From contig PS015097.1 in NCBI GenBank assembly GCA_048213135.1, positions 326,678 to 390,677 on the forward strand: a stretch of DNA of 64,000 bases, written 5' to 3'. The position numbers and the translations under genes were made by a program. Below, piece after piece: positions 2,610 to 57,727 of the stretch. The stretch's first letter is position 1. Every line of letters begins with the position of its first letter. This DNA comes from Reclinomonas americana ATCC 50394. Its lineage: Eukaryota. The notes under the pieces are model-generated. The model was not told the origin of the DNA. It ran no database searches and saw only the letters and a program-made list of their open reading frames with translations.

Positions 2610-5600
2610 ATGGTAATGGACGCTCAATCATCACTCCACACAAGACACACACAGACACGCGCGCACACTACATTCACACTCACACACACTAACGTACGCA
2701 CACTTTGTCTCTCTCTCTCTCTCTCTCTCTGTCTGCATAACTCGCATATTCTCACGTTGAGCATCACAAGAAGAATGTGTCTCTCACTCTCCTCATCTTC
2801 CCCTCCTCTCTCTCACACACACAGGGCGACTCACTCACACTCCAGCTGTCGCCTGAGATGCACGGCGTTGATGCGGGCGATGTGGCTTCAGTTGCGTCGC
2901 CTATTTATCTGTCTGTCTGTTTGTCTTTTGTGACATGTGAGCGCGTCACTCCACTGAGAGCGCGCGCGTGTGTGTGTGAGAGAGAGAAAGACGAGAGTGT
3001 CTGTGTGTGTGGCCTCTCACCTCCCAGCTCTTTGAGTGTGTGAGTGAGGATGTGGAGGATTAGGCGCGCGCGTGCTGTCTTTCACGGGCATGGGCATGTC
3101 GCCCTCGCTCTCCGTGTCACACACGCGCTCACTCTTCTGGCTCGTGATGCACGAGTCTTTGCTCTGTTTGTGTCATGATTCTTCATGTATTGTTCGATAT
3201 TTTCCGATCATTATCCGCGCCTCAAGAGATTTTTAACTTTTTTCTGTGTCTTCTGTGTGTGTGTGTGTGTGTCTTGTGTGCAGCCGGCACCGCCCACATT
3301 CATGGTGTTTCCGAGCAGTCGATTAGCGCAGCAATTTCGCGGCGAGAAGCGAGGCGAGCTGGACCCGGTTCGTTTTTTTCTTTCCTCCGCGCGTTTGTCT
3401 TTCTTTCCTGCGTCTCACACTTGGTCGCCCAGAACATCACCCTCGCGCCCTTTGATCACGAGTCACCGCCCGGCAACATTCAAGTGTTCCACGCCGGCCG
3501 CAACATTCGTCTGTCCATTCAGCGTGTGGTCCGCGAAGCCTTTTCGCCGTGCTTTGTGTTTCTCCTGGAGAGCAGTTGCGTGTGTTTCTGCTGTTTGTGG
3601 ATTGCACAGGCGTATCCGTCTCTGACGCACGCACAGCGTTCACACGAGGTCCCAACCCGCATCTCGCCGCTCCGTTTGTAGTGGAGACGGCCACGGCGCC
3701 GTATGACACGCGCGGATACATTGAGCGCACGTTTTACACGTCGTACCGCGACACCAAGACGCCGCCGATTATTTTCTCGTTTGCCGCCGACAACACGCGC
3801 CCCGATCGTTCCGAGTTGGTGGTGCGCGTCGGTCACTGCACGGGCTACTCGAAGCAGTCGGCGATTTTGTACATTTGCGTCATCTCTGCCGATGGCTCGC
3901 TGGCGGTGGTGTCCGAGGCGTTCCGCACGTCGCGCCGGAAACCGCCGAAAATCAACGAGCTGCCGCCGTTCATCGACGTGAACATTACGCAGTTCATTGC
4001 GCCCACCGTGTACGACAGCATGTCCACACGGAAATGGGTGCACGGTCAGTTCGACTATCAGAATCCACGAGGTGAGAAATGATCAACGAAGTGGTGGTGA
4101 CGCTGATCTTTGCTCCCCCTCTCGCTGTGCTCTCCTTCTCGCTGTGCTCTCCTTCTCGCTGTGCTCTCCCTCTCGCTCTGCTCCCTCTCGCTCTGCCCCC
4201 TCTCGCTCTGCCCCCTCTCGCTCTGCTCCCCCTGTCGCTCTGCTCTCCCTCTCGCTCTGCTCTCCCTCTCGCTCTTCTCCCCCTCTCTCTGTTCCCTCTC
4301 TCTGTTCCCTCTCGCTCTGCTCCCTGTCGCTCTGCTCCCCCTCTCGCTCTGCTCCCCTCTCGCTCTGCTCCCCTCTCNNNNNNNNNNNNNNNNNNNNNNN
4401 NNNNNNNNNNNNNNNNNNNNNNNNNNNNNNNNNNNNNNNNNNNNNNNNNNNNNNNNNNNNNNNNNNNNNNNNNNNNNNNNNNNNNNNNNNNNNNNNNNNN
4501 NNNNNNNNNNNNNNNNNNNNNNNNNNNNNNNNNNNNNNNNNNNNNNNNNNNNNNNNNNNNNNNNNNNNNNNNNNNNNNNNNNNNNNNNNNNNNNNNNNNN
4601 NNNNNNNNNNNNNNNNNNNNNNNNNNNNNNNNNNNNNNNNNNNNNNNNNNNNNNNNNNNNNNNNNNNNNNNNNNNNNNNNNNNNNNNNNNNNNNNNNNNN
4701 NNNNNNNNNNNNNNNNNNNNNNNNCCCTCCTCCCTCCCTCCCTCCCCTCCCTCCTCTCCCCTCCCCTTCCCCTCCCCCTCCCCCCTTCCCCTCACACCCC
4801 CCTCCCTTTCCTCTCTTGCAGAAGCCTCGGCCGACATTGGTTCGGTGGCCTTCCACTCCCCACTGGTGACCTCGCCCATGGGCGTCGGACCGATGCACTA
4901 CGCACAGTCGGTGATGCTGCCGGCGTACTCACAGTCGGCACCGGCGACCTCGAACCTCATGCACTACATGGGCGGCGGCGGCGGCGGCGGTGCCAGTGCC
5001 GCCGGCATGATGGCGGGCGCGGCGGCCGGCATGGCCGGCGTCGGAGTCGGCGCCGCGGTCATGTCCCATCACCACCTCCATCACCACCACCCCGGTTTTC
5101 ACACCGGCAGCGGCAGCTACGCCTCGAGTCACGCCGAGTCCATTGACGAGGACGAGAGTGGAAGTGGTATCGGTGGTGGTGGCGGCGGTGGTGGTGACGA
5201 AAGCGACATGCTCTACGCACACGGAGGACCGAGTGACTACTCGCAGCCGCTCGTGTCGCTTCCGCCACAATTCAGCATGCGCAACGGTCTCCGCATGCCG
5301 ACGGTGAAGAACCCGCGAGGCGGCGACGGCTCTCCAACCGCCGCCATGTTGGCGACTGGCCACTACTCGACAACGACCACGACGACCACCACACCCACCG
5401 CATCCTCATCGGTCACCGCAGTCGCCAACAGCCCCAACATGTTCACCGGGCCGTCCATTCCTGGCGCCTTGATGGGACCGCCTGGATCGACCCGCGCCGT
5501 GGCCGCCGTCTCCATGTCGATGGGACCGCCGCCACCCATGACGCCACCTCGACAGAATCGTCACGCGCCGCCGTTTGTGGCGCCCATCCCCATTCCGATT

Positions 5601-6478
5601 GGCGGCTCTGGTGGACCCGGCACTCCAGGCACGCCGTCTTCGGTGCCTGGCACACCGTCGTCGCCTGCTCTCGGTGAGCACCCGTTCCTGTTGATCCTGA
5701 TTGCTGTTATATGTTGTGGCTGACGCGCAGTGCGTGCAGGTCGATCGGATTCCTGGGGTGACTTGGCGGGCACGCCGACCAGTCGCGGCGCGGGTGCGAA
5801 TAGTGGCGCCGATCCGAGTCGCCGTTCGTCCAGTTCGTCGTCGTCGCCGCGCCCGGACGGCGAAAGTGCTCTCGGAGAGGGAGTGCTCGGCGACGAGCTG
5901 GAGGGCTTTGAGCCGCCGCGAACATGGGGCGGTCGTCCGTTTTCCGTGTTTCACACGTTCGGCAGCGAGGGCGGGTCGTCGCCGCCGCCGCCTGTGTTGG
6001 CCGGTGGCGGCGTGTTTGGCCAGCACGCACAACATCACCATCATCACCACCACCACGACGACCACTTTGACGGCAGTGCGATGGAGATGCACATGGATCT
6101 GGGTCAGGAGGATGACCATCTTCGTAGTCAACAGCCACAACAACATCACCACCATCACCACCACCATCATCACCATCACCTCGATCAGTCACATGGTCGA
6201 CCTGTGCTGTCCACGGGTGGTGGTGGCGGTGGAGGAGGGGGCGTCGGTGGAGGAGGCGGCGGTGGTACTGGTGGCGGAGTGCTGCACGAGGTGCGACCAA
6301 GTCAGTTGTGTTGTCGACGTATGGACGTCTCACTCATTGTTCCTCGGGTGCAGCGTCACGGATTCGGTGGTGGCGACCTGTTCCCCTCCAGTGAGGAGTA
6401 TTACCACCAGGAGCCGTTGACTCCCGTGTTGCCCATGGAGTCCAGCGGCGGCGAGCAAGGTATGTGGATCTCGGAAAA

Positions 6479-6549
<71 letters not shown>

Positions 6550-7077
6550 NNNNNNNNNNNNNNNNNNNNNNNNNNNNNNNNNNNNNNNNNNNNNNNNNNN
6601 NNNNNNNNNNNNNNNNNNNNNNNNNNNNNNNNNNNNNNNNNNNNNNNNNNNNNNNNNNNNNNNNNNNNNNNNNNNNNNNNNNNNNNNNNNNNNNNNNNNN
6701 NNNNNNNNNNNNNNNNNNNNNNNNNNNNNNNNNNNNNNNNNNNNNNNNNNNNNNNNNNNNNNNNNNNNNNNNNNNNNNNNNNNNNNNNNNNNNNNNNNNN
6801 NNNNNNNNNNNNNNNNNNNNNNNNNNNNNNNNNNNNNNNNNNNNNNNNNNNNNNNNNNNNNNNNNNNNNNNNNNNNNNNNNNNNNNNNNNNNNNNNNNNN
6901 NNNNNNNNNNNNNNNNNNNNNNNNNNNNNNNNNNNNNNNNNNNNNNNNNNNNNNNNNNNNNNNNNNNNNNNNNNNNNNNNNNNNNNNNNNNNNNNNNNNN
7001 NNNNNNNNNNNNNNNNNNNNNNNNNNNNNNNNNNNNNNNNNNNNNNNNNNNNNNNNNNNNNNNNNNNNNNNNNNNNN

Positions 7078-7113
<36 letters not shown>

Positions 7114-7231
7114 ATGACGAGAGTGAAAGAGAGAGAGAGAGCACGCAGAGTCGACCTTGTCTCTCTCGCTCACTCTCTCTACTTCTCACACATACACTGT
7201 CTCTGTCTGTTTCATGCTCTCTCTCTCTGTT

Positions 7232-7279
<48 letters not shown>

Positions 7280-8538
7280 TGCGTGTCTCCCGTGAACTTA
7301 CTTCCTCTTTCTTTCTCACTGTCAATCTCCAACTGTACTGTCACTTTGTCTGTCACTTTCTGTGTCTCTCTTTTATCTCTTTTATGCATGTCTCTCTCGC
7401 TTGCTGTCTTCTCTCCTTCAGTCTCTTTGTCTCTGTCTTTCCGTGTCTCTCACTCTCTCTTTTTCTCACTCTTTATCTCTGTCTCTCTCACTCTCCTCTC
7501 TCTCACTCTCTCTTTTCTCTGTCTCATTTTCTCTTGATGTCTCTCTCTCACTCACCCCACTCTCTTCCTATGTCACTCTTGTCAATCTCCTTTACGGGCA
7601 TGTCTCTCTCGCTCGCATTCTTTCTCTCCTTCAGTCTCCTCATCTTCTCTGTCTCTCCGTGTCTCTGTCTCTCTCTCTCTCGCCCACTCTCTCCCCTCTC
7701 GCTCTGCATGTGTCTCTGTCTTTTCTCTTGATGTCTCTCTCTCACCCCACTCACTTTCTCTGCCTCTCTGTTTGTCTCTTTTACATGCGTCTCTCTCGCT
7801 CACTTTCTTTCACTTGTTCAGCCTCCTTATTTTCTCACTCTCTCTCTCTGTATGTCCCTGTCGGTCTTCCTCTCCGCGTCTGTCTCATTCTGTCTACGTG
7901 TCTCTCACTCTCTCGTCTCAGTCACTGTCCTCTTTTGTCTGTCTCTTTTCCCGTGCATCTCTCTTTTCTCTTTCTCTCTCTCTCTCTCCCTTCCCCTCCC
8001 CTCCCCTCCCCTCCCTCCCCTCCCTCCCTCCTCCTCCCCTCCCTCCCCCCCCCCCCCTTTTTGCGTCTCACAATGCGGCAGGTGGCGAATCGAGCGGCGT
8101 GCAACACGCGTCGGATCTCGCCGAATGGCACATGCGAGTCGACCCGGCGGAGAAGCTGAGCAAAGGCCACCTGGTTGGCGTTCACAAGAAAGGTGCGGGG
8201 AGAGGAACAAAGAGAGGCTGGCTGACCTGTCTGCGGTTTCTCAAAGAAAAAAACATGCATGGGTGAACGCAGGTGCCATTTCCAAGCGCACAGCCGGCTG
8301 TTTGTGGCTCGCCATTGTGGCCTCGGATCCACTACTCACCGGCACGGGATATCGCGAGAATGTGCGACTGGAGGATGGCAATGCGGTGGCATACATCGGG
8401 CAGGCACCGTGCTATGTGCGAGCCACTGGTCCACCTCGCACCGGCGACCTGCTTACCGCCTCTGGTTTCAACGACGGCACCGCCCGTGTGTTGGGCTTTG
8501 GTGAAGCCACGCCAATTCCACCAGTCGGTCGAGTACTC

Positions 8539-8633
<95 letters not shown>

Positions 8634-9510
8634 GTCGTCGTCGTCGTTCGGTTGGTTGGGTGGTGGTGGTGGTAGTCGTACGTACGACGTACGTACGTAG
8701 TAGGTAGGTAGGTAGGTCGGTTACGTTGGTACGTAGTNNNNNNNNNNNNNNNNNNNNNNNNNNNNNNNNNNNNNNNNNNNNNNNNNNNNNNNNNNNNNNN
8801 NNNNNNNNNNNNNNNNNNNNNNNNNNNNNNNNNNNNNNNNNNNNNNNNNNNNNNNNNNNNNNNNNNNNNNNNNNNNNNNNNNNNNNNNNNNNNNNNNNNN
8901 NNNNNNNNNNNNNNNNNNNNNNNNNNNNNNNNNNNNNNNNNNNNNNNNNNNNNNNNNNNNNNNNNNNNNNNNNNNNNNNNNNNNNNNNNNNNNNNNNNNN
9001 NNNNNNNNNNNNNNNNNNNNNNNNNNNNNNNNNNNNNNNNNNNNNNNNNNNNNNNNNNNNNNNNNNNNNNNNNNNNNNNNNNNNNNNNNNNNNNNNNNNN
9101 NNNNNNNNNNNNNNNNNNNNNNNNNNNNNNNNNNNNNNNNNNNNNNNNNNNNNNNNNNNNNNNNNNNNNNNNNNNNNNNNNNNNNNNNNNNNNNNNNNNN
9201 NNNNNNNNNNNNNNNNNNNNNNNNNNNNNNNNNNNNNNNNNNNNNNNNNNNNNNNNNNNNNNNNNNNNNNNNNNNNNNNNNNNNNNNNNNNNNNNNNNNN
9301 NNNNNNNNNNNNNNNNNNNNNNNNNNNNNNNNNNNNNNNNNNNNNNNNNNNNNNNNNNNNNNNNNNNNNNNNNNNNNNNNNNNNNNNNNNNNNNNNNNNN
9401 NNNNNNNNNNNNNNNNNNNNNNNNNNNNNNNNNNNNNNNNNNNNNNNNNNNNNNNNNNNNNNNNCGGTACGTACGTACGTCGTCGTCGTACGTCGTCGTC
9501 GTACGTACGT

Positions 9511-9574
<64 letters not shown>

Positions 9575-9578
9575 ACGT

Positions 9579-9641
<63 letters not shown>

Positions 9642-11480
9642 ATTCATCGCGCAAGCGTTTCTATACAACACTCATCCCTCGTTAATTCTCTCTGCTCATA
9701 GCCGGTGGAATCGGAGCGCGCTCAGAGATCCACTACAGGCTCATCGCCCCCGTCATCCCCACCGCCATCGTCGTTGCTGGTCAATGTGCCACCACTGCCG
9801 AGGAGTCACATCCCGCTGGCGGAGGACGCCGCGCAGGCGCTGCTGCAGTCGTTGACGGGTGGTGGCAGTGGTTCGGGTGTGGATGTGGTGGCTCTTGTCG
9901 GCTTGCCGGGTTCTGGGAAGAGCACCTTTGCGTCGGCTGTGGTGCGGCTACCGCAGGTCGCTGCGGTGTTCACGGATGGAGTGTTTTGGATTCGTGCCGG
10001 TCGCAATGCGGACCCGCTGGTTCTTCATCGTCGCTTGTGCGACGTGGCCTCGCTGCGTGCAATATCCGAGCAGGCCACAGATGTGGATAGTTCGCGTGAC
10101 GAGCTGCGACAGCGACTAGAGGGTCGACGCTGCTTGGTGAGACGTTCATTGACAGTGTGTGCTTAGATATGCGTAGATCACTGAACGAGTCTGGCAGATT
10201 GTGGTCGACGACGTGTGGGAGTCCATTGTGTTGTATTCGTTGTCGCTCGGCCTGCCGGGTGTGACATTGCTGGTGACCACGTCCCTACGAGACACGGTGC
10301 GAGCTGCCGGTGCCGCTGTCATCAGCATGCCTGTGATGAGCGTGGAGCAGGGCGTCGAATTGCTGCGTCTGGTCGGCGATCGCACAGACAGTTGTGTTCA
10401 CTTGCCTCCTTTGTTTGTGTGGCGTTGCGTTATTGTTGACTCGTGTGTGTCACAGAAGCGTGGGACGATCCAGCCAATCCACTGCGCCTGCTCTTCCACG
10501 TGTGTGCGACGCGCCTCGTGCGACGATGCGGTGTGCTGCCGGCCGCAGTGGTGGCACTGGGCATGCACCTGCGTGACCGCCCGCTGGAGGAGTGGGACGA
10601 GTGTGTGCACATGCTGGAGTGTGTGTGCACGTCGCCATTTTTCGACGCCGAAAGTGCCGTGTCGTCAGGAGTGGCTCCCACGTGCGCCACTGCGGAGCTG
10701 AGCGAGGAGATTCGTCAGCGAATCGGGCGTGAACTGTTCCCCTTTGATGCACTGCTCGGTACGCTCGACGCGGCCTCTCGCCGTGCCTACCTCTCCCTGG
10801 CTCTGCTGCCGGCATTCCAGCTCATCAGTGGTGAGTACCCCTTTTTCCCCCCGCACTGGTTGCACGAGGGAGGTCTCGCTTCTCACCAAGCAAACAGAGA
10901 CGGTGCTGAAGAGCATGTGGGAATCGATTGGACGATTCAGCAAACTCGTTCGGTCGCTGGAGAGCTGCTGCCTGTTGGAGCGAGTTATGGTCAGTGGCAG
11001 TGAGCGTCACTCGACGACGACCACGATTGCCACGTATGCGCTGCGCTGTCCGCTGCAATGGGTGGCGCTCAAGTCTGCATGGCACTCAATGCCATCGCTG
11101 TGTGCCGGCGTCACCATCTCGCCGCCATTGGCGACCGTGCTCGCAGCGCTGCCGGAGGTGGCCACCAGTGACACGAGCATGGCCACCGACTGGGAGCAGG
11201 CACGACGGTCCGTTTCGGCGGGGTGTCTTTTGCCGCTCCCCGAGCAGGTGAGTTCGTATGTGCGAGAGAGAGCTGAGGAGATAGGAAAGGGACGTGCTCA
11301 TTGAGTCGTTGATTGCAGCCGGCGACTGTCAGAGCCGATGGGATGGCTCTGCTGACAGCCGAACTTGTGGCCCTCGGCGGCGCGCACATGCGCAAGACAC
11401 AGTCGGACCGCAGCATGCTGTCGGCTTCCGTGCGTCGTCGTTCGTCCTTTGATCAAGATCTCCCACTCGGTCGTTCGTAG
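2610..11480 (+). CDS. Multidomain protein: putative Ig-fold (CSL/CudA/Rel-like) DNA-binding domain + His/Gly/Pro-rich region + Peptidase_G2-like autocleavage domain + NB-ARC ATPase
   Basis: Reconstructed exons 2610-2612 (ATG only), 2825-2890, 3284-3367, 3433-3523, 3610-4071, 4822-5673, 5740-6459 (possible in-frame intron about 6290-6353), 8082-8192, 8273-8540, [N-gap], 9702-10136, 10198-10390, 10456-10830, 10898-11247, 11319-11480 (TAG). Splice phases agree at every junction except 8540/9702, which spans an N-gap. Motifs: LAQQFRGEKR...VSEAFRTSRRKP; SDLAEW...GDLLTAS..G.A..VGRVL; GLPGSGKS, LIVVDDVW, LLVTT, CGVLPAAV. Confidence 0.7.
4115..4377. repeat. Intronic short-unit repeat (CCCTCTCGCTCTGCT)n, about 15 bp
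   Basis: Directly visible at the start of the intron before an N-gap. Confidence 0.9.
6481..7275. repeat. (GA)n tract, N-gap, then (CT)n tracts within one intron
   Basis: Directly visible. Confidence 0.95.
8541..9640. repeat. Compound microsatellite (GT)n-(GTC)n-(GTAC)n flanking an N-gap
   Basis: Directly visible. Confidence 0.95.
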
Positions 11481-11728
11481 AAGACATTATTAGAAGGGAT
11501 CATGGGACTCCCTCGTCCATTGTTTAAGCATTTCTGGAGCCACTCTGGCCCCCTTCCCCCCTTTTTCTCTCTCTTTTTTTGTTGCGTGTATAAGCGTGTG
11601 TGTGTGTGTGTGTATGTGTGTGCGCGTGTGCAGTGAAGAAAATGCAGTCACACTTTGTGTATTTTTCAGGTGTTGCCCGCACCACACCACACGAGCCACA
11701 ATCCACTTCCACACCAGACAAAATGATC

Positions 11729-12649: not shown

Positions 12650-13778
12650 TCACTTCAACACTTCGGGTACGCGGATCTCGCCGACGCTGTACGTCTGCGC
12701 GGTGCCTCCCAGTAGCACGCGATCGCCGTCCAGACGGAGACGAAGGAACGAATAGCCGCGACGCCGCGAGGACTGGCAGGCGCGAACTTCCGAGCGCCCG
12801 AGTCGTGCGGCCCAGAACGGCGCAAGGGTGCAGTGCACCGATCCAGTGGCGGGGTCCTCGGGTATGCCTGGTGGGATTGTGTCAGCATGTAACAAACCGC
12901 ATGAGCAGCAGAGGCGAACCTATCGAGGGAACAAAGAACCGCGACACAAAGTCAACTCCTGCACGAAGAGCAAGCATTTTAGCGCAGGTTCGCGTGCAGA
13001 ACCAGCAGGCTTCCACTCACCCTTGTCGGCGGCCAGTGCCTCCGAGGCCGGGGCGGTGACAACCACTCCAAATGGACGACCCTCCAGAGCGAGAATGGCC
13101 TCCATGTTGGGTTGCAGGCGCTCCAGTTGCTCCTGCGAGCGGACGAGCACCAGCACGTCACGAGCGCCACCAAACACCTGACAGCCTTCCGTGTCATCCC
13201 CAAGGCCCACAGCGGCTAGTGCAGGAGCTGCTTCTGCCGCTGGACTTGGTTCGGAGCGCGGCGGCATCGCAGGAAAGTCCATCCACAACAGGCTGTCGTC
13301 GTCACGTGACACCGTCTGCACGTGCATGTGGTGAGTTCCGCATGCTTCCCCGCTCTCCACCGTGGTCCGCTGCTCACCAGTACGCCACTGTGCCGTGTCT
13401 GGAAGCGCACTTGCGGCCGCGTGTACCCCAGCTCGGTCCACAGTACATGCGCCGCTGCCTGCGTTGCGTGACCGCACAGATTGACCTCGGCGATCGGCGT
13501 CATCCAACGCAAATGGAAGTCCACATCGTCGCGGCCGACAGCCGGTACGATGAACGCGGTCATGGGCATGCTGTTCTCCTCGGCAATGGCCTGCAGAGTG
13601 GCATCGGAGATCGGAAACTCACCTGTGCATGCACGTGCACACTCAGTGGATTGCTTTGGTAATCACAGTCATGACAGTTACCATCGGTGGCAGTCGGTTG
13701 CAGCATACTCACAGCGGCCGGGTTGCCACGAAAGACCTCATCGGCAAAGGCGTCGACAATGACAGACGGCAGGCGCAT
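12650..13778 (-). CDS. PhzF/PBLD family isomerase, paralogue B (altered SET motif)
   Basis: VDAFA...GNPAAV, EVNLCGHAT, DFVSRFF, EDPATGSVHC; five exons splice in frame. Confidence 0.9.
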
Positions 13779-15254: not shown

Positions 15255-19006
<3,752 letters not shown>

Positions 19007-24491: not shown

Positions 24492-27073
24492 ATGGATGTT
24501 GATATGGATGATCGCTCACCGTGCGGAGCGGCTGCGGAGTGCTCGCGGGTGGATCTTGCGAAACGAGCGTCGTCTTGCGCACGAGGTACTGTGCGTGTGT
24601 GTGCGCTCTCTCCTTGTTGCTCTCCCCTCGTGCTTGTGATCATGCGCGTGCATCGTTGTGTTGCTTTCGTTGTTGGTAATGATGAATGCTGTTGTTTCTC
24701 CCGATGCGCACTGGCTCTCTCCTGCTGCCCTCTCGTTCTTCCTTCTCTGCGACGTGTGATCACACACGCGATTCTTTCTTTGCTCTCTTCGTCGTCCGAG
24801 TGCGTGAGTGTCGTGTGTTGGTGCTGATGTACATCTGCACCTCGCCGCACAGACGTGACCATGATTGAGAGCGCGGCGCTGAGCGAGCCAATGGCCTCGT
24901 TGCACGAGAGCGCCAACAGCTCTGTGTACACGGCGCTGGTGCAGGCGAGTGCGCTGCGGAGAGCTGATGATGACGATGATGATGATTGTGCGACAGTGGC
25001 GGTGGTGGTGAAGCGTGTGCGCATCACCGATCAGGATTCGCTGAGGCGGTATCGTGCGGAGGCTGCGCTGCTGTCGGGTTGCGACCATCCGGGAATCATT
25101 CGGCCACTGGCGGTTGGTGTTCTCGGAAGATTTTTTCCCTCGTCAATCGTTGACTGCTGCTGATTGCCTGGTGATTGCGCAGATTTGCTCGTCGCCGCCG
25201 ATGTATGCGTTGGTGTTGCCGCGTGCGGAGCACGGCAGCCTGTTTGCGGTGCTCCATGACCCGGTCTCACCGCCGCTCTCGTTCCCACTGGCGCTGGCGC
25301 TGGCCGTCGATGTGGCGCGCGCTTTGGCGTATCTGCATGACACAGTGGGCGTGCTTCATCGCGACATCAAGCCCGCCAACGTTGCGTCTCCCATTTCTCG
25401 TCGTGCTTCCCATCTCCCCTCTCATTGCCTGTTTTCCGTGGTCAGATTCTGGTGGATCACGAGTGGCGCGCGATGCTGACCGATTTCGATTGGGCCGAGC
25501 GCATCGACAAGGTGGCGGCGGCGGAGGAGGAGCGTAAAGCCGCGCTGCGCAACGGTGGAACGGCGGCCAAGCGTGCGGCGTGTTCACGGCCCAGTGGTGG
25601 CTTCCACAAGGCCTTCATGATTGGCACACTGCCGTACATGGCGCCCGAGTTGCTGCGAAAGGAGCTGTACACGCCGGCGGCCGACGTCTACAGCGCCGGG
25701 ATTACGTTGAACGAGTTGGTGACGGGCTGCATTCCGTACTCTGATGTGCGCTCCACCACGGTGCAAATGCACACCGTGCTGGAGGCCAACTACAGCGAGG
25801 CCTCGCTGACGGCTGCCATTTGTGCGGAGGGTGTGCGACCACGACTGCCCGACGCCTCCTCGGGGTGCCCCGACGAGTTTCGCGACTTGGTGTGTCGCTG
25901 CTGGTCGGCCGACAAGAGCAAGCGACCATTGGCGCGACAGCTGGTGGACGAGCTCGAATCCATGGCGCGCCAGCACGGCATCGAGTTGTCCACTGTCGGC
26001 CGTGCGCAGTATGCCGCCGAATGTGCTCTCATGGCGCACGCTCCCGCCACACCTGCCTCAGTGCCGCTGCCACTCGACGCAGTTGCCGACGTGGTGGTGC
26101 GCATGCGTTGTAAACTTCCACCGAACAAGTGTGCTTTCTGGTGCTGTGCTCATATCAATTTTTGTGTCGGCAGATGCGACGAAGCGACGACGATGATGAT
26201 GACAGCCGGCTGCTGTCATTAGATGAGTGTGTTGCACGCGTGCAACACTCCAGTTCGCCCCTCTACAGACCACTGGTGCACGGAGGTGCGTGCGACACGG
26301 CAGGTCGCCGTGGCGTCGACTGCATGGAGGACCGCAATGTGGTGGCCAACAACTTTGACGGTGCACCACACGTGCACATGTTTGGCGTGTTTGACGGGCA
26401 CGGTGGTGCCGAGGCTGCCACACATGCTTCCGTGCATTTGACTCGTGTCGTGGGAACGTTGCTTCGTGCGGGATTGCAGCCTGCCGATGCACTGCGCCGT
26501 GCGTTTGTGGAAGTGGACGCGCGGTTCTTGGACTGGGCATCGCTGTCGTCAAACAACGCCGGTTGCACGGCCTTGCTGACGCTGGTGATGGGCAACGTGC
26601 TGTACGTGGCCAATGCGGGCGACTGCCGCGCAGTGTTGAGTCGTGCTGGACAGCCGGTGGTGCTCACCACGGATCACGTGGCGGAGAACACACACGAGCG
26701 TGCGCGAGTGGAGAGCGCCGGCGGTTGCGTGTCTCGCACGGCGGACGGAAAGCTGCGCGTCGACGGAATCATTCAGGTGACCCGGGCGCTCGGCGACCGC
26801 CAACTCAAATCACGCGGTCTCTCGGCCGAACCCGAAATCACCACCGTGGAGCTCACGGAGAACGACGAGTTTTTGGTGCTGGCCACTGACGGAGTGTGGG
26901 ACGTGCTGTCGCCGGAGGTGGCGTTGCACCTCGTGCGAAGCACCGTGAAGCACGCCGACTACGGACCGAAGCGCATCGTGGCCGAGTGTTTCACACGTGG
27001 CAGCACCGACAACATCACCGCACTGGTGGTCTATTTGCAGGGCGAAAGGGGCTTTGAGGTGATGTCCGAGTGA
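24492..27073 (+). CDS. Protein kinase-PP2C phosphatase fusion protein
   Basis: Kinase: VVVK, HRDIKPAN, DFD, PSGGFHKAFMIGTLPYMAPE, DVYSAG. PP2C: MEDR, FDGHGG, ANAGDCR, VTRALGD, LATDGVWD, GSTDN. Confidence 0.92.
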
Positions 27074-53100: not shown

Positions 53101-56100
53101 CAAGCGAGGCAAGGGACAGACAGCAGCTGCGCCTTCTCTCCTTTCTAAAACGAAACCCCCTCCATATTGCTCAACTTGTGGCTCCCTCAACGCCCCAGCT
53201 GGCCATGTTGCCGTCGAACGCAAACCGATGAGCGGCGGCCCATTGCGGCCATCCACCGGCCAGTTGCACGGCCTGTACGAGTGGATCGAGAGTCTGCGGA
53301 TCGCTGTCGCCGTTCCAGAATATGCCGCCGCCGCCGCCCTGCCCCAGCAAATGCAACATGTCGGGCGGCGCATTGGCGGTGTTCCCGGTGAAGGTCAGGC
53401 CCGACAAAGTCGCTCCAGCCGGTGTGGCGGGATACGCGGGCAGCGTAAAGTTGAGCGACATTCCGCCACCGCGGCTGTTGCTCACATTGTCCGCGAAGAG
53501 CGAGTTGAAGAAATGCAGAATTCCACTATTCGAGATGGTCATGCCGCCACCGTCTCCGTTCTCGGCCACGTTGGCAACCAGCTGACATGCGGTGATGTTC
53601 AGGATGCCGCTGCCGCCAAAGAACAGGCCGCCACCGGCACCGAGGGCACGATTGTTGTTGATAAAGGACGCGGACAGGGAGACTCGAGGCGAGTCAGCCA
53701 TGTACAACGCACCGCCGGAGATGGCTCGATTGCCGAGAAACGAAACTGATGTTGCGTCCAATTTGGCGCTCTCGGCCATGCCCACTGCTCCTCCACCGCT
53801 GCCGCCGAGCGCAGTGTTGACGGAAAAGCGTGTCCCGACGAGCTTCGAGCTCGACCGTCCCGAGAGCTCGACCGCACCTCCGCTGAGACCCGATTGGCCA
53901 TTCGACAGAGTGCTGTAGTCGTCGAGCCAGTAGCAGAAATCGTCGACCACAAGGTGGCCACCGGAGGAAACAGCGTTGTTGTTGAAAAAGGTGGCGTTCA
54001 CGGAGACGAACACGCTGCGTTGGACCAAATTCAAGGCGCCGCCGGCCAGCGTGGCATTGTTGCCGGAAAATGTGCTGTTGGCCACTGTCACATAGGTGCG
54101 ACCCTCGGCAAAGATGGCACCGCCGTCGGCCAGCTCAGCTACGTTGTTGAGCAGCTCACTCTCCGAAAAGTCGTGTGTGCACTGCTCGCCGGCAAACACG
54201 CCGCCACCAAAGCTCGCACTGTTGCCCACCACGCTCGCACCATACCAACTCGTCGTCGAATACGAGGCACTGTAGGCTCCGCCACCAAAGAAGACGGCTG
54301 CATTGTTGCTGACCACGCCTGCAATTGTTGTATTCATGAGGCCGGCCAGATAGAAGCCACCGCCCAGCGTCAGCGCCGCATTGTGCGTCACCGACGAGTC
54401 GCTGCTGATGCTGAGTGTCGAGTCACCAATGCCATACACACCGCCACCCACGTCGCCAAAGTTATCGGAGAGTACGGTGGCGGAGAGCAGACGCACAGCA
54501 ATGTCGTCGCTCGTGATGGCCAGTCCGGCACCGAACTTGGCCAGATTTTGCATCACAGAGCAGCCAACAATGTCCACGGACGACTGCGGCTCCGATACGA
54601 GCACACCTCCTCCCACGCCACTAGAGGCCACATTCAAGGCCACGATCACCGCCGACAATGACGACTGATCGGCGATGGCCAGACCGGCTCCGCCAGTGTC
54701 AGCCTGATTGCCAGTCACAGTCGACGTGCGGAGCGTGGCACCGTTGGCCACCACCGCACCGCCTCCCACTGCAGCCGGACCATGCACCACGTTCTGGCGC
54801 AACGTACAGCTCGAGCCGACGCTGCCTAAGCCCAGCATCGCACCACCGCCGCCACACGTACGCCCGGCATACACACTGTCGATGGAGAGCGTGACAGAAT
54901 TCGACACGAAATTGCACCACGTCACCGACGCGCCTTTGATGGCGAACACGCCGCCACCTCCGCACTGATCGCCCGCAGCGTACGACGTGCCACTGGTCGA
55001 CGCAACGTCGGCAGCCAGGCCACCGATACCAGCATCAACAACGGAGTTGGCGGAGAACGAGGAAGACTGGACGGCCGTGTAGGGGCCAATCAGCATCAGG
55101 CCACCGCCACCATTGTTCGGGCTCGCAGTGCCGTCGAGCGAGGCATAGTCACCGCCTCGGCCATCACGCACGGACTGATTCCTCGTGAACGTGCAGTTGG
55201 CGACAAGCAGTGGCTGCTGCACCTGGTGTGTGAAACACTCGAGACTGAGCACAAAGACAAAGCAACAACGAATGGCTCGTATGTACGCATGCATGCCTGT
55301 GCAAAGGCTCCTGACAAGGTCGGGGACACCATCAGCAGGGCACCACCGCCGCTGTAGCCGCCATTGGAGGGGCCTACGGTTGTCGAATCACCACCAGCTG
55401 CGTTCGACATGGAGAGGTTGGAGTCGAACTGGCATGATCGCACGGTCTGTCGCATGACCAGAGGGTGAGATGGTGCGTGACGCATGCAAGAAAAAGGCAC
55501 AAAAAACCACGTACGCACCACGGGGCCAGAGGGTTCGGTTGGCCGGGTGGAGATTAGCACGGCGCCACCGCCGCAAAAGTAGGAGGCGGAGAGCGCCGAG
55601 GCAACTTTGCGATTGATTCCGTTGCCGGCATTGTTACCGCCGCTCCCTGAATGCGAGGGGGCGGGAGAAGGGGGAATGAGGAGAAGGGGGGATGAGGAGA
55701 AGGGGGGATGAGGAGAAGGGGGGATGAGGAGAAGGGAGAAGGAGAACGGAGAAGCGACAAGGGGAAGTAGAAAGGGGAAGGAACAGGGGGAAGGAACAGG
55801 GGGAAGGAACAGGGGTGAAGGAACAGGGGTGNNNNNNNNNNNNNNNNNNNNNNNNNNNNNNNNNNNNNNNNNNNNNNNNNNNNNNNNNNNNNNNNNNNNN
55901 NNNNNNNNNNNNNNNNNNNNNNNNNNNNNNNNNNNNNNNNNNNNNNNNNNNNNNNNNNNNNNNNNNNNNNNNNNNNNNNNNNNNNNNNNNNNNNNNNNNN
56001 NNNNNNNNNNNNNNNNNNNNNNNNNNNNNNNNNNNNNNNNNNNNNNNNNNNNNNNNNNNNNNNNNNNNNNNNNNNNNNNNNNNNNNNNNNNNNNNNNNNN

Positions 56101-57727
56101 NNNNNNNNNNNNNNNNNNNNNNNNNNNNNNNNNNNNNNNNNNNNNNNNNNNNNNNNNNNNNNNNNNNNNNNNNNNNNNNNNNNNNNNNNNNNNNNNNNNN
56201 NNNNNNNNNNNNNNNNNNNNNNNNNNNNNNNNNNNNNNNNNNNNAAGGAACAGGAGGAACGGAACAGGGGGAAGGAAAAGGGGAAGGAGAAGGGGAAAGT
56301 AACAGGGGAAGGAGAAGGGGGATGGAACGGGGGGGATGGGGAGATGAGGGAAGGGAGATAAGTGGGATGAATAAGAAGTGAAAGGAGGATGGATATGAAA
56401 CAGGAGAGAAGGAGAGAGGCAATGAAGAGACAGACGGAGACGGGATACGGGGAGCACCGAGTGAGGCAATGAGCGCGGACTCAGACGCAGTGAAGGACAG
56501 AGGCAACTGGCGGAAAACAGGGAGAATGCAAACGCGAATGCACACCGTTTCCGACAGCCTGGTTGCCTGTGAATGTTGAATTCGTCATCTGCGATGTGGA
56601 GGAGAGAGTGAGAAGCGAATGCGTGAGACAAAAGGATTGACCATCGAGCCACCAATTTAGTACGCAACTGTAATGGAACTCTGGTCAAATGGCAGAAACA
56701 CGAGCACAGCTCCGCCGCCAGAGATGCTCGATGAGGAGTCGCCAGAGAGGCCGTTAGAGTTGCCACCGACTCCATTGTTGAGGGCCATGTTGTTCGCAAA
56801 CGTGCAGTTGGACATTGTCGCCTAATACGCACATGTCAGTAAGAAGCAACTGGTGTATGCAGTGTGATTGCGGAGTGAACGCACCGGCCCAAGAGGGTAC
56901 AGCATAATTGCACCGCCACCGTTCTGCCCGACGGTTGACACGCCGGAGATGTCGTTGAATGATCCTGCGTGCGCCACATGGTGTCATGATCAGACTCCAC
57001 TGCGTAGCGAGCAAAGAACACACTAGCATGTCATCTGCGCACCGCCACAACCGCATGCTACAGCCGAATTATTAAGGAATCGGTTGTTAGTGATGCTCCC
57101 CTGCACATGAGACGGTAAGCATCTCCCTATGAAGCACGTGTGTAAACATGAGCTGCATATTTCAAACGCACGGTCCCAAAGCCAAAGATCCACGCAGCGC
57201 CACCCCCCGCAATACCGGCATTAGCGTCGCCAGTGGTGGAGTTGTTGCCTGTACATCAATTGAGCCATGAGTACAGATCACCAGGATGCCACTGAAACTT
57301 GCCGACACACCTCCGCTGGCCACCTGCCAGACTCGATTTCCGGTAAACGTGCAATTGTCGAGTGTGAAGGTCGGCTGTGACGGGCAGCGCACGGAGAGAC
57401 GTAAATGCAACGAGCAGTGTGTGGGGAAAAGAGAGAGAAGAGAGAGAGAAGAAAAGAGAAGAGAAAAGAAAGAAGAAAAGGGGAGGCAAAGAAGAGAGCG
57501 AAGAGAAGAGTGGAGTAGAGAATTGTGAGAAGGGAAGAAGAGAAGGGGAGGCAGAAAAGAGAGCGAAGAGAAGAGAAGAAAAGAGTGGAGCAGAGAAGAC
57601 GGGAGAAGGGGAGAAGAGGAGAGAGAGAAGAGAAGAGAGGGAGAAGGAGAGAAGAGGAAAAAGAGAGGAGGATCCGAAGAGAGAATGAGCGAGTGCAAGA
57701 GCAAATGCGAGCTCGCGGCGGACACAC

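Follow-up and report, generated by a model that had tools for sequence, protein, structure and literature searches.

The textbook example of eukaryotic signalling that reuses a chaperone-protease of phage tail spikes is MYRF, with a domain of the S74 family. A locus of Reclinomonas americana ATCC 50394 raises the question of whether the other phage family, gp12 / Peptidase_G2, has been put to a similar use. The locus lies in a stretch of 64,000 nucleotides (assembly GCA_048213135.1, contig PS015097.1, positions 326,678 to 390,677 of the forward strand), which is called the window here and from the first letter of which all positions are counted. A first-pass annotation had proposed that positions 2610-11480 encode a self-cleaving transcription factor gated by a STAND ATPase. 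We find a Peptidase_G2-like domain within a spliced eukaryotic gene, adjoining and probably fused to a STAND ATPase of the NB-ARC type. The best explanation of the locus is that 3302-11480 on the plus strand is one spliced gene of about 1,370 residues in an intron-bearing, GC-rich microbial eukaryote; taken jointly, with all its parts, this explanation is held at somewhat better than even. Because every statement on transcripts rests on sequence and homology, the gene model is a prediction.

A Peptidase_G2-like domain encoded by two exons

The domain begins in exon 6 (8082-8192, plus strand), which carries the motif HAS|DLAEW at 8105-8128, and after an intron of 80 nucleotides it goes on in exon 7 (8273-8540, or to 8532 with an alternative donor), which encodes its core. 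Ser-Asp-Leu-Ala-Glu is encoded at 8111-8125, and cleavage is predicted between the residues encoded at 8111-8113 (Ser) and 8114-8116 (Asp). From MEROPS and the literature on gp12, we take the residues of this boundary motif to be catalytic.

A search of 1.84 billion representative proteins with exon 7 alone (88 residues) gives 36 matches (E 4.6e-8 to 7.6e-4, 28-50% identity), most of which lie near the C-terminus of their proteins. Thirty of the 36 were aligned, leaving out P0003, P0011, P0017, P0024 and P0029, which are repetitive and match in multiple stretches, and also P0027. PF11962 (Peptidase_G2) is detected at E<=0.01 in 25 of the 30 scanned homologues, and in 5 of 10 in an earlier batch. 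The predicted relationship with Peptidase_G2 is well supported and significant, though only through intermediate homologues.

In the homologues, a strongly conserved motif lies directly upstream of the part matched by exon 7, and the same motif is present in exon 6. A profile of the 30 homologues gives 68.7 bits for the exon 7 frame, 29.0 bits for exon 6 (E 2.5e-9 in a local search) and 104.8 bits for the spliced domain. Exon 6 was never used as a query, yet it is collinear with the upstream profile positions 11-48. Removal of the 80-nucleotide intron restores the collinearity exactly, and the spliced domain aligns with short gaps only. Therefore, the splice and the homology are both confirmed.

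The Asp, Ala and Glu residues of the boundary motif are conserved to at least 90% in two family alignments, and all of them are kept in the window. The other near-invariant residues of the family core are also kept, save for a Gly-Asp pair, which is Gly-His here. P0010 and P0014, the closest homologues in that motif, likewise have Gly-His, and these two proteins may be the nearest eukaryote-type relatives of the domain. As a separate observation, both share a Trp-His version of the boundary motif with the window; their N-terminal regions are Cys-rich and match no family, and neither protein has an NB-ARC domain or the N-terminal domain described below.

The fold was modelled on a part of the homologue P0014, not on the window protein, using 31 aligned rows. 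The AlphaFold2 model has a predicted local distance difference test score (pLDDT) of 77 and a predicted template modelling score of 0.70, and the pLDDT is 87-97 over the core (residue blocks 41-130). The only Foldseek matches of this model at E<=0.001 are 3gqh_A (E 6e-5, template modelling scores 0.49/0.54), which is the C-terminal fragment of phi29 gp12, and 3suc (E 9e-5), which is pre-mature gp12. In a comparison by sequence with the G2-family profile, the chaperone domain D4 of Dpo31 (E 0.023) and 3gqh (E 0.13) are weak matches. The high-confidence core of the fold is wholly covered by the visible exons 6 and 7; the family tail has a pLDDT of at most 55 even in the P0014 model. According to PMC13317679, D4 acts as a trimeric auto-chaperone in both Dpo31 and gp12 and is missing from the mature protein. 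Judged by its homologues and by the predicted fold of one of them, the domain at HAS|DLAEW is genuinely related to the intramolecular-chaperone autoprotease of the phi29 gp12 D4 / Peptidase_G2 type, and its activity is predicted. The first-pass annotation had called this domain phage Peptidase_G2-like, a reading that is upheld by PF11962 in 25 of 30 homologues, by the 104.8 bits of the spliced domain and by the gp12 fold of the homologue model.

The G2-like family is widespread in bacteria. A degenerate motif scan of bacteria selected 39 loci, of which 30, from several phyla, carry a G2-like domain and nine are chance matches. With P0020 as a single query, the search for a prokaryotic precedent found nothing. 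In a Saprospiraceae genome, two adjacent open reading frames (ORFs) of 637 and 663 residues (L012:1432-5314, plus strand) each end in a G2-like domain and represent a tandem duplication. Wenzhouxiangella sp. 15190 has two G2-like copies on separate contigs, and one Acidobacteriota contig has two (L007, L010).

An NB-ARC domain without recognisable sensor repeats

Exon 8 (9702-10136, plus strand, with an alternative in-frame start at 9728) encodes a Ser/Pro-rich spacer and the N-terminal part of an NB-ARC domain. Its frame matches positions 6-104 of the PF00931 profile (E 4.1e-7); the score of 29.9 bits exceeds the curated cut-off of 23.5, and the P-loop is encoded at 9900-9923. The frames of the next two exons extend the NB-ARC profile collinearly. 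Exon 9 (10198-10390), which encodes Walker B and the segment after it, lies in a stop-to-stop frame at 10177-10698 that covers profile positions 104-173 (E 0.035), and exon 10 (10456-10830), which encodes a GLPL-like motif, lies in a frame at 10440-11000 that covers positions 182-222 (E 0.34). The exact exon 10 alone matches no Pfam family at E<=0.1. A scan for the P-loop, Walker B, GLPL and MHD motifs that define NB-ARC domains finds the first two and the GLPL-like motif in these exons, and no MHD-type motif.

Exon 11 (10898-11247), which is placed by its splice sites and matches no Pfam family, encodes the C-terminal region, and exon 12 (11319-11480) ends with the stop codon TAG at 11478-11480. 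No Pfam family of sensor repeats (WD40, TPR or LRR) is found in the C-terminal exons or in the plus-strand frames up to 13 kb. As far as Pfam reaches, the NB-ARC domain is thus sensor-less, as the first-pass annotation had described it. In a search of longer proteins with the NB-ARC exon query, the nearest relatives are only two proteins of 1,321 residues. Both are named as TPR repeat proteins, carry Pfam entries for TIR, NB-ARC and TPR, and show 36-38% identity.

The top hydropathy values in windows of 19 residues are 1.75 and 1.71, in the N-terminal domain and the NB-ARC domain, and 1.64 and 1.62, in the C-terminal region and the linker. Neither a clear membrane anchor nor a signal peptide is evident, and the predicted protein is apparently cytosolic.

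One gene or two

An assembly gap of 727 N (8738-9464) lies in the intron that separates the G2-like exons from those of the NB-ARC domain. The exon that ends at 8540 ends in phase 2 and the exon that starts at 9702 starts in phase 0. The first-pass annotation was right about this mismatch, and the donor GTACTC at 8533, which it gave as a way out, restores the frame. A second in-frame option, absent from that annotation, combines the donor at 8541 with the AG at 9726-27. Both options (8533/9702 and 8541/9726-27) give one ORF without an internal stop. If the donor at 8541 is read through, a GT repeat is translated. No in-frame ATG occurs in the G2 exons or in the first NB-ARC exon. Exon 8 lies in a frame that opens straight after a TAG and has no Met, and therefore an upstream coding exon is required. 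Similar GT, CGT and ACGT repeats lie on both flanks of the gap, which suggests that the gap is just more repeat. We regard the G2-like and NB-ARC exons as probably fused in one predicted gene.

Several observations weigh against such a fused gene with a working G2-like domain. GTGTGT at 8541, the donor that looks best, is out of phase with the first AG, at 9700-01, and a gap of 727 N lies between them. A Pfam scan of the frames of the G2 exons (7976-8263 and 8224-8560) gives no PF11962 at E<=1. The tail of the G2 family (profile positions 117-155) has no match in any frame of 7900-11500; either an exon for it is hidden in the 727-N gap or the domain is truncated. The strand-rich neck that is conserved before the cleavage site in the homologues is absent, and low-complexity sequence abuts the site instead. 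NB-ARC does not occur among the families listed (25 of 26) for the 30 scanned G2 homologues, and the same full architecture was found in no homologue. When the translations of the three NB-ARC exons, together with P0039 and P0040, were compared by blastp with the 1,715 ORFs of the 39 bacterial loci, there were 0 matches at E<=1e-3. Furthermore, NB-ARC domains usually assemble into wheels of 4- to 8-fold symmetry, a poor fit with a 3-fold chaperone.

Some of these points would be explained by two adjacent genes. The first gene would encode the N-terminal domain, the linker and the G2-like domain, and its last exon and stop codon would lie in the gap; the second would encode the NB-ARC domain, with its first coding exon likewise in the gap. 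The phase mismatch between the donor at 8541 and the acceptor at 9702 and the lack of the G2 family tail in the visible sequence would both be expected, and so would the position of the G2-like domain near the C-terminus of the ORF in 30 of the 39 bacterial loci, with no detected homologue that has an NB-ARC domain. However, a terminal exon, untranslated regions, an intergenic promoter and a first exon must all fit into about 730 nucleotides plus simple repeats, and the similarity of the repeats on the gap flanks suggests that the gap holds more of the same. Moreover, two in-frame splice options are available, and the core of the G2 fold is complete in the visible exons (pLDDT 87-97 in the P0014 model), the family tail being a part that models poorly. 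On balance, two genes are unlikely.

Exon structure of the predicted gene

In the single-gene model, twelve plus-strand exons joined by GT-AG introns form one ORF from 3302 to 11480, the sole stop of which is terminal. The encoded length is 1,369 to 1,379 residues and is set by the choice of splice sites. Eight introns are 35-80 nucleotides long, and three are long (750, 1,622 and 1,187 nucleotides), each with one N gap. Exons 3 to 7 are joined by four successive junctions of phase 1 with canonical splice sites. The first-pass annotation had placed four parts in this order on phase-consistent exons; the order stands, on the plus strand, and the phases are consistent from exon 1 to the end of the G2-like domain. 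However, the start at 2610 is too far upstream, because homology starts at the ATG at 3302, where the start Met of P0042 aligns.

The window is nuclear DNA of a eukaryote. It contains spliceosomal GT-AG introns, long microsatellites of GT, CT, GA and CGT, and six N gaps. The gaps are of unequal length (20 to 727 nucleotides) and lie at 828-1183, 1966-1985, 4378-4724, 6550-7077, 8738-9464 and 55832-56244. The three that fall in the long introns of the gene are flanked on both sides by similar simple repeats (CT-rich, GA, and GT/CGT/ACGT). This suggests that the intronic gaps are assembly breaks in microsatellites rather than lost coding sequence.

These gaps bear on a further reading, in which the locus is a pseudogene, or unrelated pieces were joined in the scaffold, and the architecture is not expressed as such. 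Three N gaps lie inside the locus, and GC-rich low-complexity DNA opens several frames by chance, as with the three frames of more than 230 codons at 5400-6400. However, the conserved exons have no frame-breaking stops, the family-conserved residues of the G2 core are kept, the P-loop and Walker B are intact, and the 11 introns have canonical sites and consistent phases. A decayed or mis-assembled locus is hardly credible on this evidence.

A lineage-restricted N-terminal domain and a low-complexity linker

The N-terminal domain of about 215 residues is encoded by exons 1 to 3 on the plus strand. Exon 1 (3302-3367) consists of 22 codons from the start ATG at 3302 and has the donor GTTCGT. Exon 2 (3433-3574) belongs to the conserved domain, and exon 3 (3637-4071, or from 3610 with an alternative in-frame acceptor) encodes its core and has the donor GTGAGA. 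P0001 aligns collinearly with all three exons in three tblastn pieces (3257-3367, 3433-3573 and 3663-4070) with a joint E of 1.1e-56. For exon 2, the identity to P0001 is 53% over 47 residues and a profile of the domain gives 86.9 bits for the frame; for exon 3, the identity is 55% (E 2.9e-42) and the profile gives 286.8 bits.

P0001 is the only match among 275 candidates when the domain is searched against longer proteins. It is a partial protein of 726 residues on a contig of 2,403 nucleotides and ends within a region rich in His, Gln, Gly, Ser and Pro. Because P0001 ends in the linker, it is uninformative on what lies downstream. A search of proteins of similar length gives two short relatives, P0041 (E 1.7e-32) and P0042 (E 7e-29), and a metagenome scan found no relatives of exon 3. 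Because P0001, P0041 and P0042 match it, the predicted domain is real, conserved and lineage-restricted, and it represents a small uncharacterised family worth a structure. In P0041, the conserved domain is followed (residues ~165-214) by an acidic tract, after which a short cluster of basic residues resembles a nuclear localisation signal. P0041 lies on a contig of 1,478 nucleotides and may be a read-through prediction.

The first-pass annotation had assigned this domain as a DNA-binding domain with a p53-like transcription factor fold, for which support is lacking. Pfam gives no family at E<=1 for the exon 3 frame and no DNA-binding family at E<=10 for P0001, where the sole row is Metal_resist (E 6, chance level), or for the five rows of the domain alignment, where the only entry is DP-EP (E 0.13) in one row. 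In the PDB, phmmer with P0001 gives three low-complexity rows at E>=1.5, none of them a DNA-binding fold, and the alignment profile gives 0 chains at E<=10. The AlphaFold2 model of the domain, built on the five-row alignment, is weak (pLDDT 42) and contains seven strands besides two short helices. Foldseek with this model finds nothing at E<=0.001, and its best rows (E>=0.14) are mostly antibody-type chains. A language-model feature search with the P0001 domain has as its top row an unnamed eukaryotic cluster of 230 residues (0.88) and also returns COE1_DBD (0.82), LAG1 (0.81), SPT23/MGA2_DBD (0.78) and P53 (0.76), all below the bar of 0.9 set for this tool, with which shuffled proteins attain 0.8 in a third of cases. 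The same search with P0041 gives no usable match, and the DNA-binding-type clusters seen with P0001 are not reproduced. Taken together, a DNA-binding domain is a weak lead and not a finding.

The linker follows in two plus-strand exons, both of phase 1 at each end. Exon 4 (4822-5673) encodes a low-complexity sequence rich in Gly, Ser, Pro and His; it has a CAG acceptor with a pyrimidine tract and the donor GTGAGC, and the intron before it contains a gap of 347 N. Exon 5 (5731-6459) encodes poly-His and poly-Gly runs, has the donor GTATGT and shows weak low-complexity similarity to the His-rich linker of P0001. The two exons encode 527 residues, of which 19% are Gly, 12% Ser, 10% Pro, 8% His and 8% Ala. 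The earlier description of about 500 residues rich in His, Gly, Pro and Met is right for the first three, and Met is outside the eight commonest residues. At about 5400-6400, three frames stay open over more than 230 codons, and therefore the openness of the linker frame by itself proves little. The linker frames were chosen as those in phase with strong splice sites at both ends, and they show low-complexity resemblance to the P0001 linker. This linker of about 530 residues is probably disordered.

A predicted autoprocessing precursor

In the proposed mechanism, the chain would run from the N-terminal domain through the disordered linker, the G2-like autoprotease and the short Ser/Pro spacer to the sensor-less NB-ARC (STAND) ATPase. 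If it behaves like the G2 and S74 chaperone domains that have been solved and assayed, the G2-like domain would assemble as a trimer and cut the chain at Ser|Asp. One product of the cut would be the N-terminal domain with the linker, and the other the chaperone domain with the NB-ARC domain. The protein would therefore be an autoprocessing precursor, the two halves of which have different fates. We infer by analogy the Ser|Asp cut, its control by nucleotide-driven oligomerisation of the NB-ARC domain and a nuclear action of the freed fragment; what the sequence shows is the identities and order of the domains and the exon structure. Gating of the cleavage by the NB-ARC domain is pure inference, and constitutive processing during folding is an equally simple alternative.

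The full model of the first-pass annotation would make such a precursor a soluble latent transcription factor, a convergent and membrane-free MYRF in which oligomerisation of the NB-ARC domain triggers the G2 cut, the N-terminal domain binds DNA and the linker is an activation region. The architecture parallels that of MYRF, in which the chaperone domain trimerises and cuts at its N-terminal boundary and the freed N-terminal trimer, a DNA-binding fragment, enters the nucleus, according to PMC3742443. The feature matches of the P0001 domain fall on beta-sandwich transcription factor clusters (COE1_DBD, LAG1, SPT23/MGA2 and P53, 0.76-0.82), P0041 has its acidic tract and basic cluster after the domain, and a signal peptide or membrane anchor is not evident. 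However, all of these feature scores are below 0.9 and P0041 has no usable match; no DNA-binding Pfam family appears at E<=10, nor any PDB match to a DNA-binding fold; and the structural model, at pLDDT 42, gives only Foldseek rows at E>=0.14 that are mostly antibody-type chains. Nothing bears on gating, and the symmetry of a trimeric chaperone differs from that of an NB-ARC wheel. Hence, a latent transcription factor is distinctly unlikely. The full scenario, in which a second independent eukaryotic domestication of a phage auto-chaperone (G2 rather than S74) would let a sensor-less NB-ARC domain oligomerise on a nucleotide or ligand cue and bring the G2 domains together, so that the Ser|Asp cut frees a beta-sandwich DNA-binding domain and a disordered activation region for the nucleus, is very unlikely.

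Alternatively, the fused gene may encode an NLR-like (nucleotide-binding leucine-rich repeat-like) immune or cell-death protein, in which the N-terminal domain is an effector matured or released by the G2-like domain and the NB-ARC domain is the switch. STAND proteins commonly join an NB-ARC domain with an N-terminal effector, the N-terminal domain here has no recognisable DNA-binding signature, and the closest NB-ARC relatives have TIR, NB-ARC and TPR Pfam entries. However, sensor repeats were not found, no effector family is recognised in the N-terminal domain, and the order is atypical, with the effector far upstream and the NB-ARC domain C-terminal. The probability of an NLR-like protein is as low as that of a latent transcription factor.

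With a single gene for an autoprocessing precursor as the preferred reading, the interpretation in the first-pass annotation is upheld in part. Its G2 and NB-ARC assignments stand, and so does its exon logic; the transcription factor identity, the gating and the final join are not established. If the fusion and the self-cleavage are true, this would be a second independent recruitment of a phage chaperone-protease domain and the first link known to us between irreversible autoproteolysis and an NB-ARC switch. It would also offer a simple system to ask whether oligomerisation licenses an intramolecular protease.

Other features of the window

On the 3' side, the NB-ARC gene is bounded by a PhzF-like exon on the opposite strand (12923-13618, minus strand, Pfam E 6e-7). 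An MCM_OB exon lies at 17058-17789 on the minus strand (Pfam E 6e-17). At 25341-27070 on the plus strand, a frame for the C-lobe of a protein kinase (Pkinase, Pfam E 7e-17) overlaps with a full PP2C frame (E 1e-58) that follows on the same strand; the two frames may belong to one kinase-PP2C fusion gene or to separate genes that are tightly packed. An open frame of 738 residues at 53174-55387 on the minus strand contains short Gly/Ala/Ser/Asn motifs resembling beta-helix or adhesin repeats and has no Pfam family at E<=0.001. Minus-strand frames at 58-62 kb are similar to it in composition.

Comparison with known systems

In the literature titles and starts of abstracts listed by our searches, and in the parts of PMC3742443, PMC13317679 and PMC13294678 that were consulted, there is no eukaryotic G2-type domain in a regulator and no architecture that combines G2 with NB-ARC. 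Among the matches listed, papers on PF11962, peptidase G2 or the pre-neck appendage are phage, bacterial or unrelated by title. Within titles and abstract starts, the literature thus agrees with the first-pass annotation, which had claimed that no protein of this architecture is described.

The closest relatives of exons 6 and 7 are bacterial and archaeal proteins in which a fibre, an adhesin or a propeller is followed by a G2-like domain and a coiled coil; these share 28-50% identity and the core motifs. Their G2-like domain lies near the C-terminus and a coiled coil forms the end, and the passengers vary, FG-GAP, the YadA head and a beta-propeller being examples, with no NB-ARC among the families listed.

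The domain shares with phi29 gp12 and Dpo31 D4 (PF11962, MEROPS G2) the family fold, as seen in the homologue model, and the Asp-x-Ala-Glu boundary motif. The phage D4 domains end a trimeric beta-helix spike, whereas low-complexity sequence without the conserved neck lies upstream of the domain here. Furthermore, the domain here is split over two spliceosomal exons of a eukaryotic gene, an ATPase probably comes after it, and its visible part lacks the last 35-40 profile positions of the family.

Among the NB-ARC/STAND ATPases are Apaf-1, CED-4 and plant NLRs, and the bacterial STAND regulators AfsR and MalT. The pairing of a DNA-binding domain with a STAND ATPase has bacterial precedents. The window protein resembles these ATPases in PF00931 above the cut-off, the P-loop, Walker B and the GLPL-like motif. 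It differs in that sensor repeats and an MHD motif were not found and that the NB-ARC domain is C-terminal, after an autoprotease domain.

MYRF and MrfA consist of an Ndt80-type DNA-binding domain, a Peptidase_S74 intramolecular-chaperone autoprotease and a transmembrane segment. Like them, the window protein is eukaryotic and has a phage tail-spike chaperone downstream of an N-terminal module, and by analogy with MYRF, its chain would be cut at a Ser|Asp-type boundary after trimerisation. However, the chaperone is of the S74 type in MYRF and MrfA and of the gp12 / Peptidase_G2 type here, and no Ndt80/PhoG match is given by Pfam for the exon 3 frame, P0001 or the alignment rows. In the window protein, a linker of about 530 residues separates the N-terminal domain from the predicted cleavage site, and in place of the membrane segment of MYRF and MrfA, of which there is no clear counterpart, an NB-ARC domain probably follows.

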